DNA from: Lytechinus pictus
Lineage: Eukaryota
Assembly (NCBI RefSeq): GCF_037042905.1
Contig: NC_087251.1
Coordinates: forward strand, 22,074,001-22,138,000
DNA length: 64,000 bases
Direction: 5' to 3'
Part shown: piece after piece, positions 2,271 through 62,744 of the stretch
Layout of the letters: every line of letters begins with the position of its first letter
Position numbering within the stretch: position 1 is the first letter of the stretch
The notes under the pieces: generated by a model
Told to the model about the DNA's origin: nothing
Database searches by the model: none
The model's input: the letters and a program-made list of their open reading frames with translations, nothing else
Program-made: the position numbers and the translations under genes

Positions 2271-4059
2271 TTGAGCAAGCCTCCTGCGATGACCCTGGCT
2301 GGCCAGTGAATTCTCAGAGATGCTGCCAGTATATCTTCTATGTCGGTGTAAAGCTAAGTTTCTACTGCAATGAGGGTTATAACATCAGTGGAAGTGATGA
2401 AAGGACATGTCTCTCCAACGGTCAGTGGTCTGGGGTCCAGCCGGTCTGTAATGAGAGTAAGTTGAATCATTTTCTCTGACCTGATATCCATGCCCTGCAT
2501 TTCTATTCAAACAGCCATCTCTTTATGTCAGACCCAAAGCAGACACTAAGACACCCATTTTCACCTTCTCAACCCCCCCCCCCCTGAAAAAGGAAAATGA
2601 ATTAATTAATAAAATGAAATAGAATGAAAAAAAATAAATAAATAAATGAAAATAATAACAAAGGAGGTGTGGTTGTCTACAATCTTCAATATGAAGTACA
2701 TCACCTTTTGTTTATCTTTTTTATTCCTTGTTTTTCTTCTTTGATATTCTTAGTTCCTTAACTCCAAATAATTACCCCTTCAAAATCTATACTGGTCATT
2801 GCCTTGAGTAACCTTGGGTTGTTTTCATTGTAAAATATGATTGACAGCGGTCTTACACTTTATGTTGGCTCAGTTAAAATAGGGGTCAAGTGTACAAAAG
2901 TCTGTTTAATTTTCAAAAAATACCATAATACATATGTCACTGGGGTGTATCATGATGAGCTGATTCTGTCTCTCACCTTACAATCAATGGATCTTGTGAT
3001 AGAAACCCACCGAAGTACTAGTGTCGATTGGCAAGACATCCAAGGTTTTGCCACTCTTCACCTAGTTGTTAAATAGGTTGGATGCAAAATGCCAGTGTAT
3101 CATGTAATAGTATTCTAACTTGGAATTTCCTACTGGAATGCTGTATAGGGAAAGGAGAAAGTCCAATCATTCTATTTTGGCAAGTCTGACTGCCACAATA
3201 ATAATAATTTATCTGTGAATCACTTATACACTTCATCTCGATGTATATATTGTTATTATTATTATTATGTAAAAGCAAAATACTTTTATTATTTTTCATT
3301 ATTCTTCTCAATTGTCCTTTTACAGTTACCGTACCTCCAACACCAGAGGACAGCAGTATGTTTAACACAGAAACATTGACCATTGTCATGGCAACCACTG
3401 GCTCGATCCTTGGCATCCTGGTTGTCACTGTAATTCTGACAAGTCGTCAGTGTCGGTCCCGTCGTCATCGTGTGCCCCAAAACTACCCTCCAGTATTGCG
3501 TGCCCAGCTTGCGAGGCTACATCGTGACCCAGACGCCCTGGCTCTCCTTGCAGTGACGGATGATATTGGCGTTGTTTTGCCATCATATGACGAGGCGGTA
3601 GCCCAGATCCAGACTGCCCATGTTCCACCATTCCAAACTCCCTCAACTGAGGGTGATGACTCAAATGCAAATGATGGTGGGGAGAACCGTTCTTCGGTGC
3701 AGGGGAGGCCTCTTCCTCCCATACCGCCTCCGCTACCACATCAAGGCTCATCAACAAGATCAGGACGGTCAAGACGACAGCGCCGTGCAGGTCGTCAGCA
3801 GACTCCTCCATCCCCGTCTCCACCTGCATACGAGCAACATGAGGAGCCTCTGGATGTTGCAAATGCGGTCCAGGGAGAAAGCCCTCCAGCGGAGGACAGT
3901 CAGGCCAGGAGAGGTGAGGAGGAAATGATGGATGGTGGAGGACCAACCCATAGTATGGTTGGTAATGATCTCTATGCTGAGGTTCCTCAGAGAAGAGCCG
4001 AGCCACAAGGAGATGATGCACATCATACGGATGATAATACTAATCAAGTGGAAAGCTAA
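2271..4059 (+). CDS. Sushi/CCP-domain single-pass membrane protein, SUSD4/SUSD6-like; last two coding exons only, upstream exons outside the window
   Basis: Exon 2271-2456 (cag|...|gtaag, phase 1-1) encodes the CCP domain SCDDPGWPVNSQRCCQYIFYVGVKLSFYCNEGYNISGSDERTCLSNGQWSGVQPVC. Exon 3326-4059 encodes TM TLTIVMATTGSILGILVVTVIL, a basic stop-transfer segment, then VVLPSYDEAV and PPAY motifs, stop TAA at 4057-4059. The TM plus LPSY(D/E)EAV layout resembles vertebrate SUSD4/SUSD6 (from recall). Confidence 0.85.
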
Positions 4060-6601: not shown

Positions 6602-7184
6602 AGGAGAATGAAACCCTTGAAACTAGCTGAATCCATATCAAAGAGAAAAATCAAAGAAACATATTGTTGAAAGTTTGAGGAAGATTGAATGAATAATAAG
6701 AAAGTTATGAGCATTTGAATATTGAGATCACTAGTGCCATGTAGATCCTCCCATCGGCAATGCGACCAAGATCTGTGATATCACACACGTACAACTCCCT
6801 CATTACTTTAATACTTATTTCACTTATATTCTCACTTTTATAGAGTCTATCACAAGGTTAGGTGTTTTCTTTATGAGATGACAAGTACAGAGGTTTCACA
6901 ACATTATATCATTGATGAATCGTTTGTCATATGATTAGAATGAGCAAAAAGAGATGTTTTGGGGTATATTTTCAGTGTCCGAATGGGAGAGTTGTACGTG
7001 TGTGACATCACAGATCTTGGTCGCATTGCCAATGGGAGGATCTCCATAGCATTAGTGATCTCGACATTCAAATGCTCATAACTCTTTTATTGCTAGTCCT
7101 ATTTTACTCAAAGTTTTGTTGATCTTATTCTTTGATTTTTCTGCTTTCACAAAAGCTAACTTGCTCCAAGAGTTTCATTCTCCT
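6602..7184. mobile_element. Kolobok/T2-like foldback MITE with TTAA target duplication
   Basis: TTAA|aggagaatgaaac...gtttcattctcct|TTAA, with long inverted arms (about 6700-6800 vs 6985-7085). Confidence 0.85.
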
Positions 7185-8696
7185 TTAACAATTGCTGCAC
7201 ATACATATATCCATTGGAAATATGTTTTTAACCATTTTCATGTTATTCACATTTTACTGTTATAGCTTTCTTATTACATAATTATCTGCTATTGGACAGG
7301 AACATAATGTTTGCTAATTAATATAAATTACTATAAAGCAAAATATAGAAATATACATATGTATAGTTTTAAATTGTTCTTAAATTCATCAGATTTCCTT
7401 CTTAAACATTTTTTTTTCTGGTTTTGGCACCATAATTGCTTTGTAGCCTACCATCAGAGGCATACATGTCAAATTGGCTACTCATATCACTTGGCAAACT
7501 TGTGAATGCAGTCATTTTGCTTTATATTACATTGGTTTTGATAGTGCAAGTTTTGTTAACTCTGAAATATGTTATGTTATTCTTTGTTTATCATAATTTT
7601 AGGCACTAAATATGCTGAAGTTCCATGTCTTTATTTGCATTATCACTTTTATGAAACTCATTGATGCATATATTTTTATAGCACTTTAAAGATTATAGAG
7701 AAGGGATTCTCATGGATGTTTTGTTTGTTTGATTGTTTCTTTTGTAGTTGTTTTCTTATGTAGGTGTATTACGTTTCTTATATATTAAAATGAATATGAC
7801 AAGGGTTAAAGAAAATTAGGCTTTTCTTGACAGAATCCATTTTGAATAAGTACCTATTCTCGTTGTGTAATTATTTGTCCTTTATCCTCTTGTATCAATA
7901 GATATTGAGAGATACACGGGCATTGACAGTGAAGAGACAATGTGAAAAGCGAAAAGAGGCTAATAAAACAATAAATTCATTCCTAGCACGTTATGTGACA
8001 ATCACTCCTTCTGATCGTCACACAGGCTCCTCACCGTGACCATTTTAGGGGCTATCTTCAACCCTTGTGTGTATGGCCATTATGCAGCTGAGTAAACTGA
8101 ACATAGTGATCGATTTGGATGTGCTGAGCAACCGGCTATAAGCTCTTTTGATCACTTCAAGTTGGGTTATATCATTGATTGAGATTTAGAAGGACGTGAA
8201 CTATATCTCCAGAGAATAAATGTCCTTGCCATTCTCAGATGCTTTTAACAGATTTCTGTTAAGATTTAATTGCTCTAAAATCCAAATGCAAAGAAGGACT
8301 TAATGTCATTTTGTTTACCCAGGCAATATATTTCTGAGAGCTACATCCAATAAAAAAAAAGAGTGTAATGAAAGTGATTTCATCTTTATTGTTATTTCTT
8401 TGACTCGGGAGCTAAGAATTTTGGTGTGATTGCCTATAGGACATTACTGTCATTTAAGTTATATATTCTGGTTGATTCTTTTTTTTTTTTAATGTATCTT
8501 TCTTTTCTTTAGAGAAAGTGATGGTAATCAAAATTATATTTAATCCGGATGAAAAAAACTCTGTCAGTATGATGCATATATTTAAATCAGAGCCAAGAGA
8601 GAGGGGATTCTTAAACCCCTACCCATGGTCACAGAAAGTAATTCAGAGACTAGCTTGCTGTCGACTAAGCCTCACAATTTGACAAGAAATATGTTC

Positions 8697-58654: not shown

Positions 58655-59701
58655 CTAGAAGAAGAAAGTACAAAGATTTCAAGCATTAAATTTTGTTTTT
58701 CTGTTTAATCTCTCAGGTTATTTTCCTTGAAATAGGTCACTGGTCCATTTTTGTGTGTGAAAAACATTGAAACACCACTCCTGCTTGTGGATTTATTTAT
58801 GTTCTATCATTTCAATTTCAACTTTTTCGCTCATGACGGTCTCATCAAAATGTTGAAGAAATTAAGACATTAATCAAAAGAAATAAAACTTTGAAACATA
58901 TCTCTGCCGCGCTTGTTTGCCTCCGCCGTTCATTTATACCTTCTACGCCGATGGTGGTGGATTTCTTTCACTTTCATCTATATTTATCTCATACGTCACC
59001 TTTCCCCCCAAAATGAAATAATACGTAAGAAATATAACATTGAAACTCATTCATGTGCTTATTATTTCACATTCTGCACCGATTGTTGAAAATTTGTCCC
59101 GCCAAGTTTTTTGTCAGACTTTTGTTTCGCTGGGATTTCTGGCATTCGTTTCACATAATTTTTTTTAGCAGACTTTTTTATCCTCAAATATCCTCTTTTT
59201 TTAAAAGATGATTCGCAAAATCGGGGGTGAAGCCTATACACCGCCGCAGCCTTTACGCTGGCAAATACGGTAGACCCTACCCAAATAACATGCTCCCTAC
59301 TACAGAGAATTTCTGTCTTAATCAGTCTAAACTACACTTAATTATTATGTGTCTAGGCACAAGGCTAGATTTTCTGTTTCTTCTTTTTCTAATTATGCTT
59401 GGAACTATGTACAGGTTTAAACAAAATAGATACAAATGTTGAAGTGTTTTTCTTTCTAATTTAAATTATTGAGATTCTACCAGTCTATGTTCTGTCACTT
59501 AGGTGCTCTATACTACAGAGACTTGGCACTGCCAAGGTGGTTACGAGTGAAAAGTGGGCAACAAGTGACTAGGAGTTTCATATATTTTCCATCAAAATGG
59601 TTGACATTTAATAGTTAAAAAGAAAACCAAATAGCTCTTCCTTATAAATTTTGGTTACCTCATATCTTAAATATGGGCTAAAGCTGATCTAAGACTAAGC
59701 C

Positions 59702-59885
59702 ACTGGGTGTTGTGACTTGTGACATGCGCCTGTAATCCAAGCTATGTGGGGAAGTTACTAATTGATGCAGAGATTCGGGCCCTGGTCACGTCTTTCGGAT
59801 ATTGACGTTAAAGGTCGGTCCCAGACGTAAATAATCATATCTGATTGATACACCTCTGACAAAACTCAAATACACACACACACAC
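59702..59885 (+). mobile_element. SINE-like element with a putative 7SL-derived head, Deu-domain-like body and (CA)n tail
   Basis: Head ctgggtgttgtgac[ttgtgac]atgcgcctgtaatccaagctatgtgggg resembles the 7SL/Alu 5' end. It is followed by B-box-like agattcgggccc, body gtctttcggatattgacgttaaaggtcggtccc and tail tacacacacacacac. Confidence 0.65.
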
Positions 59886-62744
59886 TCAATGTGCATCAGA
59901 AATATGATGCAGATTCCGCATTTTCTTCAATTTGTGCTTTGTTTCAGGTGCTATAGACTTTCCTAGCCATTTTGGTAAACAAATTCCAGCTCAATTTTGC
60001 CAAGATTTACTCTACAAAATATAGACCTAACTGATCACCTAAATTTCATTTACATCTGGAATCAAGAACTGATCCGGAGCTGTTCCAAAATTGAGATTGA
60101 GTGTCTGAATTCATTTCTACTGATACCAGTGATCTCCGACCTTAACGGAAGAAGGATACAAGAGAGAGATTGTCCCAGAACAGAGACAAATCATGTCTTG
60201 ATAAATTTTTTTCACCTCCCCATGGGACATAGACTGCAATTACCAGGATGCACCCCCCACCAAAAATAACAAAAGATTGCTGAGACTTGGAAGGGGTATT
60301 TTAACGATTATCAGCCGATAGTTTGACTAGTCTTGACTCACAGACCCTTTACTGACTAAATAAACTGATGTCTATGGACAATTACACGCACTAGATCCTG
60401 CTCCAAATTTGACGGAATAAAGCCATATTTTGGTATGCATTTTCACTCCCCCATCATATATGTTCTATATTTGGGCTAGATATATAATTCTGAACATTCT
60501 CCATGTTTTTATTTTCAATTTTAGTGGGGGTGCATATGGAACTCTTGCCAAATATAGATTCAGGGAGCTCAATTCCCCCATTTTCACTGTTTATTCGTCT
60601 TCCAATAATCTTGTTATAAAATGTAACTTGATTGTTAACAACATTGACTAGCGCACTCGATTGGTGTCAGCATTTGACGGGTAATGAACTTTCCAAGATT
60701 TTTCTTGTGTGGAGAAATCTTTGAATACTGAGACAGCTGACAGACCCTGTAAACTGGGCCTCGCACGATCCCAATTTTCTCCCCAGGTCAGGCCCAGCTA
60801 CTGTAAACGCTAATATTTTCGCGGGATTAATTTTTCGCGCTTGGTAGCTTCAAAACATATTCACAGGTTCTTGAATACACGCTGCACACTCCATAATCAC
60901 AAAGTCACTTACCCATCTGTGAATGGTTTTAATTAACATTTCAGCGACGAAATTGTATTTTCTGATCATAATTCTAGCTCAAAATCGGCATACCTCAGCA
61001 TTGTTTTGATCCAATCATGAGCTTTTTTTACATTTAGCACAACTTTCCTTTGCGGGGCGGACATCGGGAAAGGCAAAACGGAGGCGCGGCTGGCCTGGTA
61101 TGATGGCAGAGCACCGGGTAAGGACCATGGGGATTACGGCTATTCAAAGTACATCGGATCAATCAACACACCTGGGCGATCGACCCAACGTCTTCTTAAA
61201 AACTAAACAGATCTAAACACTCACCAATCAAACAGCAAAAGCAATTTATATTCCAACCAAAATAATGATTTAAATACCGATCTGCGGCTGTTAAAAAATG
61301 ATCGCATTGCCATTGGCAACAAATTCCACAAAATTTCCACTTACAGTAGGTATGTGACAAAAAAAATGAAAATCATCGAATATGAATAAATTTGGTATCA
61401 CTTGAAAGCTCTTAAAAAGACCTTTAAAATGATACCAAGAACTTTAATTTTCATCAAGAAATTAGAAAGTTATTCCAGTTTAAGTTGCGCATATTCATCC
61501 AAATTTGTGGTCATTGTCTTAATGTAAAGTCAATGGAGTACAGAACCCATTTTTGTGACCATTTTGAACCCAAGTCTTCAACAGGTTCTAACTTCTTTGT
61601 TTTTGAGTCCTATGAAGTAATTTAGGTATCAATGGAAAGGTGAGAGAATGCTCAATTGATGTGTATCAATTCATCTTGTAATTTTTCTTATTATGTGTAA
61701 AATAATTTCTTCTAATTAATTCTAATTAATTATGCAAATAACACAAAATCACAATTACTCGCCTCTTTTTTTGCCAAATGAAGGTGATTATGATAGATAA
61801 TTCATATAATTTAGTTGGCATCAAGACAGCATCATGTAGATAATTTCCTAAATGAATTTGTCTAAAGTATTGTTTTTGTAATTTCTAATGTATTTCTTTG
61901 TTTTTCTGATATAAATTACAAGCTCTTTTTCAACTTAGTATTGTAATTTTGTATATGTGTATGTACGGGGGTCCTTTTTTACATATAAAACATTTTCTTT
62001 TGTACTTTGTATGACCAAATAAAAATATGTGTGCTTTTTTCTGATGATTTTGATTGTTTCACCAATTCCTTATGTATTCTATTGTTTCAACAATTTGTTA
62101 TACATGTATAATATGTAGCTTTTGATTTGAGAGACAATGGACATGTGATTACATTTTTTTAGAAGGAATGAGCAGCTGAGTGTAAAATATGTATGTAGAA
62201 TTGTATGCAATTTATTTCAAGTATCAAGAAGGACGAAAATTAAGTTTTAATATATTCTATCAGTTGTCAATGTCTTATATTTGTATACATACATTGTATT
62301 ACTAAGGCCCTGTTTGAGCTCTCTTTTTAAAGAAAAATAAATAAATTCAAATTATTAGTCGAAGCCAAAAGAAAAGGAAAAGAGTGGTCTATTTCTTTCA
62401 AAACAAAACAAAAAACAACCAGGAAAAATATATAACAAAGCTCTAAACAACAACAAAACAGACATCAAAGCTCCAAACAAGCACTAAAAAAAAACAAGAG
62501 AAACAAAAGTGACACAAAAACTTGTACCAATCCCATCCCCATTTTCCAATTCAAAACACAACCCCCACCTGCGCCCCTAAAAAAAGAAAAGTGAATAAAA
62601 AAATAAATAGTAAAATTAATAATGAAGAAAACATAAATACATGACTTAGACCCATCTGGAAATGAAATATTCTTTCCTCTGAGTTTTCATATATTTTCTT
62701 ACAAGAGTGAAAAAAATTACAACAAAAAAATAAACAACATCTAG

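Follow-up and report, generated by a model that had tools for sequence, protein, structure and literature searches.

Short interspersed elements (SINEs) with heads derived from 7SL RNA are extremely rare and, in the accounts published so far, are known from supraprimates, hagfish and, since 2026, a shrew mole, whose Urop family was added by Kosushkin et al. (2026). All 7SL SINEs described in these accounts carry a ~183-nucleotide (nt) central deletion of 7SL RNA, which corresponds to the whole Alu domain. Alu/FLAM and B1 of supraprimates and Urop of the shrew mole are reported to consist of 7SL sequence solely, with this deletion, a 3' Alu domain and a poly(A) tail, and to depend on the long interspersed element (LINE) L1. 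The hagfish family SINE1-1_EBu of Eptatretus burgeri, represented by 2363 full-length copies, is described as keeping the whole Alu domain, made up of 7SL nt 1–96 and the 3' end, together with the 7SL B box, on a body derived from UCON3/RTE, and as being mobilised by a non-L1 LINE (RTE) (Kojima, 2020; PMC7245038). Here we analyse a SINE at positions 59702–59885 (+) of a 64,000-nt stretch of the sea urchin Lytechinus pictus (NCBI RefSeq assembly GCF_037042905.1, contig NC_087251.1, positions 22,074,001 to 22,138,000; hereafter the window). We read it, with a probability of roughly 0.88, as a dead copy of a composite echinoid SINE that combines a 7SL-derived head, a tRNA-type B box and a Deu/Nin-type core. 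Its family membership, the copy number and 5' boundary of the family, the 7SL derivation of the head, the target duplications and recent activity are established.

As described by Kojima (2020), SINE1-1_EBu resembles the urchin element in its Alu-independent origin, in the fusion of a 7SL head to an older SINE body, in its microsatellite tail in place of poly(A), and in being a young family of similar size; presumably the urchin element is also mobilised by a non-L1 LINE. The two differ in that the urchin element has only ~46 nt of 7SL, a tRNA-type B box and a Deu/Nin-type core. With Alu/FLAM, B1 and Urop it shares a head that begins at 7SL nt 1 and includes the A box, the UGUAAU turn and helices 2–4, but it lacks the other sequence features listed above, and presumably the dependence on L1. 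Chimeras of 7SL-derived and tRNA-derived sequence are represented by the Tu-type SINEs of tree shrews and by the bushbaby family GarnAlu, which, according to Kojima (2020; PMC7245038), go back to the one 7SL lineage of Euarchontoglires and depend on L1, in contrast to what is presumed for the urchin element. AmnSINE1, as presented in PMC4758252, is likewise headed by a non-tRNA small RNA that took over the promoter function and stands before the remains of a tRNA SINE and a Deu core. The head there comes from 5S rRNA and the Deu domain has its full length of ~130 nt, whereas the urchin head is 7SL and the core ~42 nt long. Judged by its sequence, the urchin element is different from all described 7SL families in having the 5' domain only, a tRNA-type B box and a Deu/Nin-type core.

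The genome (812 Mb, 368 contigs) was searched with 59690–59890 as query, which gave 1534 first-look candidates; all 40 scored matches were 89–95% identical. The same genome has a match of 236.7 bits to Pfam Bindin, the family of a sea-urchin sperm protein, in keeping with an echinoid host. Genome-wide, a 29-nt tail word occurs exactly 829 times, a 26-nt head word of one subfamily occurs exactly 485 times, and a 34-nt head word is present at 1295 places with up to 3 mismatches, the reversed-pattern control being 0 in each case. The window contains a single copy. When 30 loci were aligned with their flanks, yielding the family consensus, one conserved block of ~166 nt followed by (CA)n emerged, and the flanks on both sides were unrelated among loci from many contigs. 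The family is short and interspersed in the sense of SINEBase (<1 kb, non-tandem), at ~166 nt plus tail, with a few tandem dimers. Among 62 distinct head-bearing places, positions 1–3 are A, C and T in 50, 56 and 59, respectively, and position −1 is A in 34, while bases are near-random from −2 upstream; the 5' end is therefore sharp. An earlier sequence-only reading of the window had predicted a dispersed SINE and had named beforehand, as the observation that would support it, a large number of dispersed copies whose shared 5' boundary lies at 7SL nt 1; both are borne out.

Eight copies (L004–L009, L012 and L015) match the 164-nt consensus core at 100% identity, while older copies are 79–88% identical and one, L053, only 72.5%; closer kin of L053 were not found in the genome, the next best match standing at 74%. 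Since identities run from 100% to 72.5%, the family spans a wide age range and has been active very recently. Three subfamilies were seen, whose differences are confined to the helix-4 loop. Of 20 places that match the tail word exactly without matching the head word exactly, 15 carry a head and belong to other subfamilies (two of them with an internal deletion and one without ~8 nt), 4 start at consensus nt 75–83, and 1 is a 42-nt tail. One subfamily has a 7-bp duplication, GAGGTTC, beside the B box. The four places that begin at nt 75–83, the start of the Deu-type core (L071, L072, L074 and L078), have unrelated upstream sequences, with no SINE 5' part within ~350–410 bp, and this start may be a truncation or recombination hotspot. 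Head-to-tail SINE dimers separated by the (CA)n tail alone are present at L039 326–701, L040 260–636 and L008 1501–1862; since L039, L040 and L041 have common flanks, the dimer-bearing segment there has been duplicated.

LINE enzymes make small-RNA chimeras, and the copies could on that basis be independent 7SL chimeric retropseudogenes, produced by repeated template switches without any self-propagating family. However, one identical junction, directly after GGAAGT and into TTACAAATTG, is found in every head-bearing copy of the three sets of loci compared (30/30, 10/10 and 15/15), and the subfamilies carry diagnostic changes. We therefore consider independent origins extremely improbable, and treat the copies as one SINE family.

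The host genome has seven Metazoa_SRP genes scoring 272–283 bits, three on C10, three on C1 and one on C12, and 18 sampled further weak Metazoa_SRP matches (32–35 bits) are copies of the SINE. The 7SL genes start ACCGGGCGTTGTGGCGTGCGCCTGTAATCCAGCTAC, except the C12 gene, which starts ACTGGG, and the SINE consensus starts ACTGGGCGTTGTGGCGTGCGCCTGTAATCCAAGCTA. In local alignment, the consensus head is identical to host 7SL nt 1–35 at 34 of 36 columns and overall at 40–42 of 46–48 columns (85–89%), and four subfamily representatives aligned with two 7SL genes are identical at 38–42 of 46–48 columns. The similarity stops directly after GGAAGT, at ~7SL nt 45–46, so that the head (59702–59755 in the window, + strand) corresponds to 7SL nt 1 to ~46, or helices 2, 3 and 4 of the Alu 5' domain; it includes an A-box-like word at 59706–59715 (+) and the UGUAAU turn. 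Infernal aligns the well-preserved copy L016 to positions 1–44 of the Rfam model RF00017 (Metazoa_SRP) with 27.4 bits and E = 2e-5, and in this alignment helices 2, 3 and 4 are all still pairable. Five of seven further loci match the model at E values of 5e-6 to 1.8e-4, and the other two, L005 and L053, have no match at E ≤ 0.01. The SINE copies, at 27–35 bits, are far from the whole-model alignment and 70-bit gathering score of 7SL genes and retropseudogenes. In its head, taken from 7SL RNA and starting at nt 1 of it, the element is SINE1-like, and the 7SL origin of the head is as the sequence-only reading had proposed.

The source can be traced further. The head and the host 7SL genes have U9, U10 and U17 in common, at positions that are c, g and c in the Rfam consensus, which indicates that the head derives from the 7SL RNA of this lineage and not from a foreign Alu. 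Furthermore, the helix-2 pair C3–G of most 7SL genes is U3–A in the SINE, as in the C12 paralogue L037, and this gene may resemble the source gene of the head. L037 differs from L031–L036 in having U3 and a compensating A in helix 2 (ACT...GGAAGT). The three C10 7SL genes each have an old SINE copy upstream, in the same orientation and ending ~30 bp before the gene start; these copies are 79–88% identical to the consensus (L031 876–1049 and 1289–1467, L035 1293–1467, L036 1314–1473, with the 7SL gene starting at 1501 in all three), and the two copies in L031 have the same flank. The insertion beside the C10 genes seems to predate their duplication.

An ordinary SINE2 with a tRNA-derived head, resembling 7SL by chance or through shared A-box constraints, would account for the tRNA-type B box, and most SINEs, including the sea-urchin families named in the literature, are tRNA-derived. 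The agreement with host 7SL described above, which extends to lineage-specific bases, is hard to reconcile with this explanation. Neither a tRNA-like head nor a cloverleaf remnant was found, the B box alone being tRNA-type: Infernal searches of the window stretch and the sampled loci gave no match to the tRNA model RF00005 (E ≤ 10 or ≤ 0.01), and ARAGORN predicted no tRNA either in the window stretch or in 14 loci. For practical purposes the tRNA-derived head can be regarded as refuted by these sequence comparisons, and its chance of being right as negligible. The 7SL origin is restricted to the head. Beyond it, the best local score against 7SL was 14, compared with a shuffle mean of 9.2 (sd 1.5, maximum 15); this lies within the shuffle range, and a 7SL origin of the body was rejected.

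The head is followed by a 16-nt linker (59756–59771, +; consensus TTACAAATTGATGCAG), whose 7SL similarity is not above that of shuffles, and then by the B box at consensus nt 63–73 (59772–59782, +). The canonical tRNA-type B-box motif is GGTTCGANNCC, and the consensus B box, GGTTCGAGCCC, fits this motif by sequence. Next comes the core, consensus nt 77–118, GTCACGTCTTTCGGATGGTGACGTTAAAGGTCGGTCCCAGAC (59785–59826, +), with a predicted hairpin GTCAC...GTGAC. Within it, the core word GTCTTTCGGATATTGACGTTAAAGGTCGGTCCC at 59790–59822, starting GTCTTTCGGAT and ending GGTCCC, has 1 match in the window and 2 mismatches to the family consensus, and it is matched in 0 of 100 shuffles. The core was aligned by eye with the start of AmnSINE1_HS 213–343 (Kojima, 2020, supplementary file 1, Fig. 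S4), and ~31 of 42 columns agree. The sequence-only reading had likened the body to the Deu core, and this likeness extends over the first ~42 nt of a ~130-nt domain; the later blocks are missing from the element, and a 15-nt word of the second Deu block is not enriched genome-wide (2 occurrences, control 1). In the literature Nin-DC is described as part of Deu, with Inv as its 5' end, and for this reason we label the core a putative Deu/Nin-type 5' subdomain, by likeness and with no assignment to the DeuSINEs.

Consensus nt 114–150 (37 nt; 59822–59858, +) are predicted to fold into a two-stem 3' hairpin of −13 kcal/mol, the presumed recognition element for a stringent-type LINE. A paralogous tail (L093, L104–L107), which ends in (AAC)n, is predicted to fold in the same way, two pairs having changed in a compensatory manner (A-U to G-C and A-U to U-A), and this speaks for the hairpin being a functional RNA element such as stringent LINEs recognise. 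The paralogous tail (977–1030 in L093) sits inside a long satellite-like repeat with 648 first-look candidates, and it may be a SINE- or LINE-derived piece captured in the satellite. The element closes with ACAAAACTCAAAT and a microsatellite tail (59859–59885, +), which in the window is (CA)7 at 59872–59885 and differs in length among copies. TTTT is absent from the consensus, and a Pol III (RNA polymerase III) transcript would therefore extend into the flank.

Retroposition is supported by target-site duplications, which the sequence-only reading had suggested looking for. Duplications of at least 6 bp flank 10 of 58 distinct full-length copies, compared with 1.06 expected when the pairing of the flanks is shuffled (at most 5 in any of 300 shuffles), and duplications of at least 8 bp flank 3, compared with 0.04 expected. 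In addition, the 42-nt 5'-truncated copy mentioned above is inserted in another repeat with a 5-bp duplication, and five paralogous members of that repeat are empty at this place.

Several findings weigh against the composite 7SL-headed reading. The sequence-only reading had suggested an Alu domain used as in Alu, and only the 5' half of it is there: model positions 1–44 alone align, and the 3' half of the Alu domain, retained in all described 7SL SINEs, is missing. The 7SL overlap of ~46 nt is also shorter than the formal criterion of SINEBase, which asks for at least 60% identity to tRNA, 5S or 7SL RNA over at least 60 nt, or for Pol III transcription by experiment. The window copy by itself is not significant against Metazoa_SRP (Infernal, 59680–59900: positions 1–44, 11.1 bits, E = 0.6). 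None of the 14 genome matches to a parent-SINE pattern (A-box-like word, B box and core start) has a tRNA-like head, so that no tRNA-headed relative sharing this B box and core was found. Recognisable target duplications are limited to those 10 of 58 copies, a scarcity that fits CR1/L2-type integration without proving it. Finally, the partner LINE, which the sequence-only reading had hoped to reach through the 3' end, did not appear in three exclusion-pattern genome scans with 18, 33 and 97 matches.

All matches of these scans are truncated, deleted, variant or interrupted SINE copies, the interruptions being miniature inverted-repeat transposable elements (MITEs). The first two patterns would miss a LINE that shares the whole hairpin, because they included a stem base. 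None of the 20 tail-word places described above is a LINE. Candidate upstream sequences were considered and rejected: an upstream sequence recurring in 3 of the 18 matches is a segmental or satellite duplicate; recurrent upstream sequences among the 97 matches are TTAA-MITEs inserted in the TTAA of the SINE, nt 100–103; and the sequence upstream of the 42-nt tail is another repeat with empty paralogous sites. A genome scan for RVT_1 gave 12239 candidates.

A template switch would explain why the 5' end falls exactly at 7SL nt 1 and why all copies have one junction. A reverse transcriptase copying the RNA of an older B-box/Deu SINE would have switched to 7SL RNA near nt 46, and the LINE enzyme would then have run on to the 7SL 5' end, giving rise to a single master element, as suggested by the common junction of all copies. 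Transcription by Pol III would start at nt 1, directed by the 7SL A box, which corresponds to nt 6–15 in the description of Kojima (2020; PMC7245038), together with the B box. The reverse transcriptase of a stringent, presumably CR1/L2-like LINE would recognise the 3' hairpin and the microsatellite, and insertion would leave short target duplications or none. In addition, the folded 46-nt 7SL domain probably binds SRP9/14 and may carry the RNA to ribosomes that make the LINE protein. An SRP14 exon match of 30.6 bits is present in the host genome.

The SRP9/14 step gains weight from the results reported by Moldovan, Yin and Moran (2025; PMC12199147), in which a 5' Alu domain of 46 nt is associated with SRP9/14 in HeLa cells and its versions SA46 and AY46 reach ~86% and ~73% of full Alu retrotransposition, compared with 7% for the Alu 3' domain and 12% for the first 20 nt. 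SA46 and AY46 have the same 7SL extent as the urchin head, nt 1 to ~46; as described there, they are engineered, transcribed from a Pol II promoter and moved by human L1, whereas the urchin element is, by its sequence, a natural Pol III-type SINE of an invertebrate. The 7SL piece might instead provide just a Pol III promoter and start site, with SRP9/14 binding and ribosome targeting being irrelevant to mobility. SINE heads are said to act primarily as internal promoters (Kojima, 2020; PMC7245038), the 3' Alu domain is missing, and ribosome docking is less obviously needed than for L1/Alu when the presumed stringent LINE reads a 3' hairpin. However, the retained piece does not stop shortly behind the A box, at nt ~15, but extends to the boundary of the folded 5' domain (~nt 46); helices 2–4 remain pairable, with a compensatory pair in helix 2; the three subfamilies seen vary in the helix-4 loop only; and the same 46 nt suffice for SRP9/14 association in human cells according to PMC12199147. 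A promoter-only role is thus possible, at odds somewhat worse than even, and we consider that the 46-nt head probably binds SRP9/14.

The family might also be real but already catalogued in Repbase or Dfam, for instance as a tRNA-derived DeuSINE akin to SINE2-3_SP, in which case at most the 7SL reading of the head would be new. In Strongylocentrotus purpuratus, SINE2-3_SP is an established DeuSINE, for which a tRNA head and the partner CR1Y_SP are listed (PMC3747384). As far as the descriptions in PMC3747384, PMC4824008 and PMC5804259 allow comparison, it shares with the element a sea-urchin host and a Deu/Nin-type core, and the listed tRNA head and partner are what set it apart from the 7SL-headed element here; a SINE2-3_SP-type element may have donated the SINE body. 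Copies as divergent as 72.5% (L053), and 79–88% beside the 7SL genes, indicate that the lineage is not only recent and could be shared among urchins. Published statements, on which the novelty of the family rests, point the other way. Kojima (2020; PMC7245038), a Repbase curator, states that no SINE1 had been evident outside Euarchontoglires before the hagfish family; according to Kosushkin et al. (2026), supraprimates and hagfish are otherwise the only groups with known 7SL SINEs; and the sea-urchin families SINE2-1, -2, -3, -4c, -6 and -8_SP and SURF1 are all listed as tRNA-derived in the literature at hand. A full-text literature search for a 7SL SINE in sea urchins, echinoderms or invertebrates found none, and four 15–18-nt words of the element were not found in paper full texts, where a further search with the sequence matched unrelated 9-mers only. 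Prior cataloguing therefore appears unlikely, though it is to be reckoned with.

If the 7SL-headed family is new, it would be the first invertebrate 7SL SINE and a further independent origin, in which 7SL has been cut to a minimal ~46-nt SRP9/14-binding module and coupled to a non-L1, hairpin-recognising LINE. We advance this proposal tentatively, as one that is rather more apt to fail in some part than to hold as a whole. It would carry the 7SL-SINE phenomenon beyond vertebrates and add an architecture absent from the published accounts cited here, in which a head made of the 5' domain only is joined to a tRNA-type B box, a Deu/Nin core and a microsatellite tail, and SRP9/14 ribosome docking would then be a general, portable strategy for hijacking LINEs across deuterostomes and no peculiarity of L1/Alu. 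According to Moldovan et al. (2025; PMC12199147), ~46 nt of 7SL are necessary and nearly sufficient for Alu mobility. Because just those ~46 nt are kept, the urchin element would be a natural test of the SRP9/14 role with a non-L1 partner, in a young family with copies identical to the consensus and in an experimentally tractable embryo system. Automatic repeat classifiers may call the family "Alu-like" or mis-file it.

The window copy is full-length and decayed, ~5% off the consensus core, and every string quoted in the sequence-only reading was located there at its position. Its head reads ACTGGGTG TTGTGAC TTGTGAC ATGCGCCTGTAATCCAAGCTATGTGGGGAAGT, the 7-bp ttgtgac being duplicated at 59710–59716 and 59717–59723, with the second unit interrupting the head. 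Besides this duplication, the 166-nt core has 8 substitutions. Many mismatches had been ascribed to CpG decay, which is correct for two transitions, C7T and G16A; a third change at a CpG, G146C, is a transversion and breaks one pair of the 3' hairpin, so that the remark is only partly right. The expected B box, canonical in the consensus, is damaged in this copy (GATTCGGGCCC) by two substitutions, and for that reason the copy is most likely inert. Nothing significant was detected around the element by an Rfam scan of 4 kb or an ARAGORN scan of 1.5 kb.

Other repeats were encountered alongside the SINE. The repeat around the 42-nt tail site (L080–L085) has 368 first-look candidates at 93–95% identity and opens with a perfect hairpin, CTAATACGAGGTTAGTATA...TACTAACCTCGTA. 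The window also carries, at 6604–7189 (+), a MITE of ~585 bp that has terminal inverted repeats and is flanked by TTAA; it is likewise present in L108, L109, L111 and L112. It has 2071 first-look candidates, and 40 copies or more show 100% identity over 573 nt. This and other TTAA-MITE families split SINE copies at consensus nt 100–103, and since they are inserted inside SINE copies, they were active after those SINE insertions. Elsewhere in the window, long open reading frames in all frames at 1546–2353 reflect a trinucleotide-type simple repeat and not genes, and the open reading frame at 3208–4059 (+) resembles a terminal exon of low complexity containing a hydrophobic stretch.

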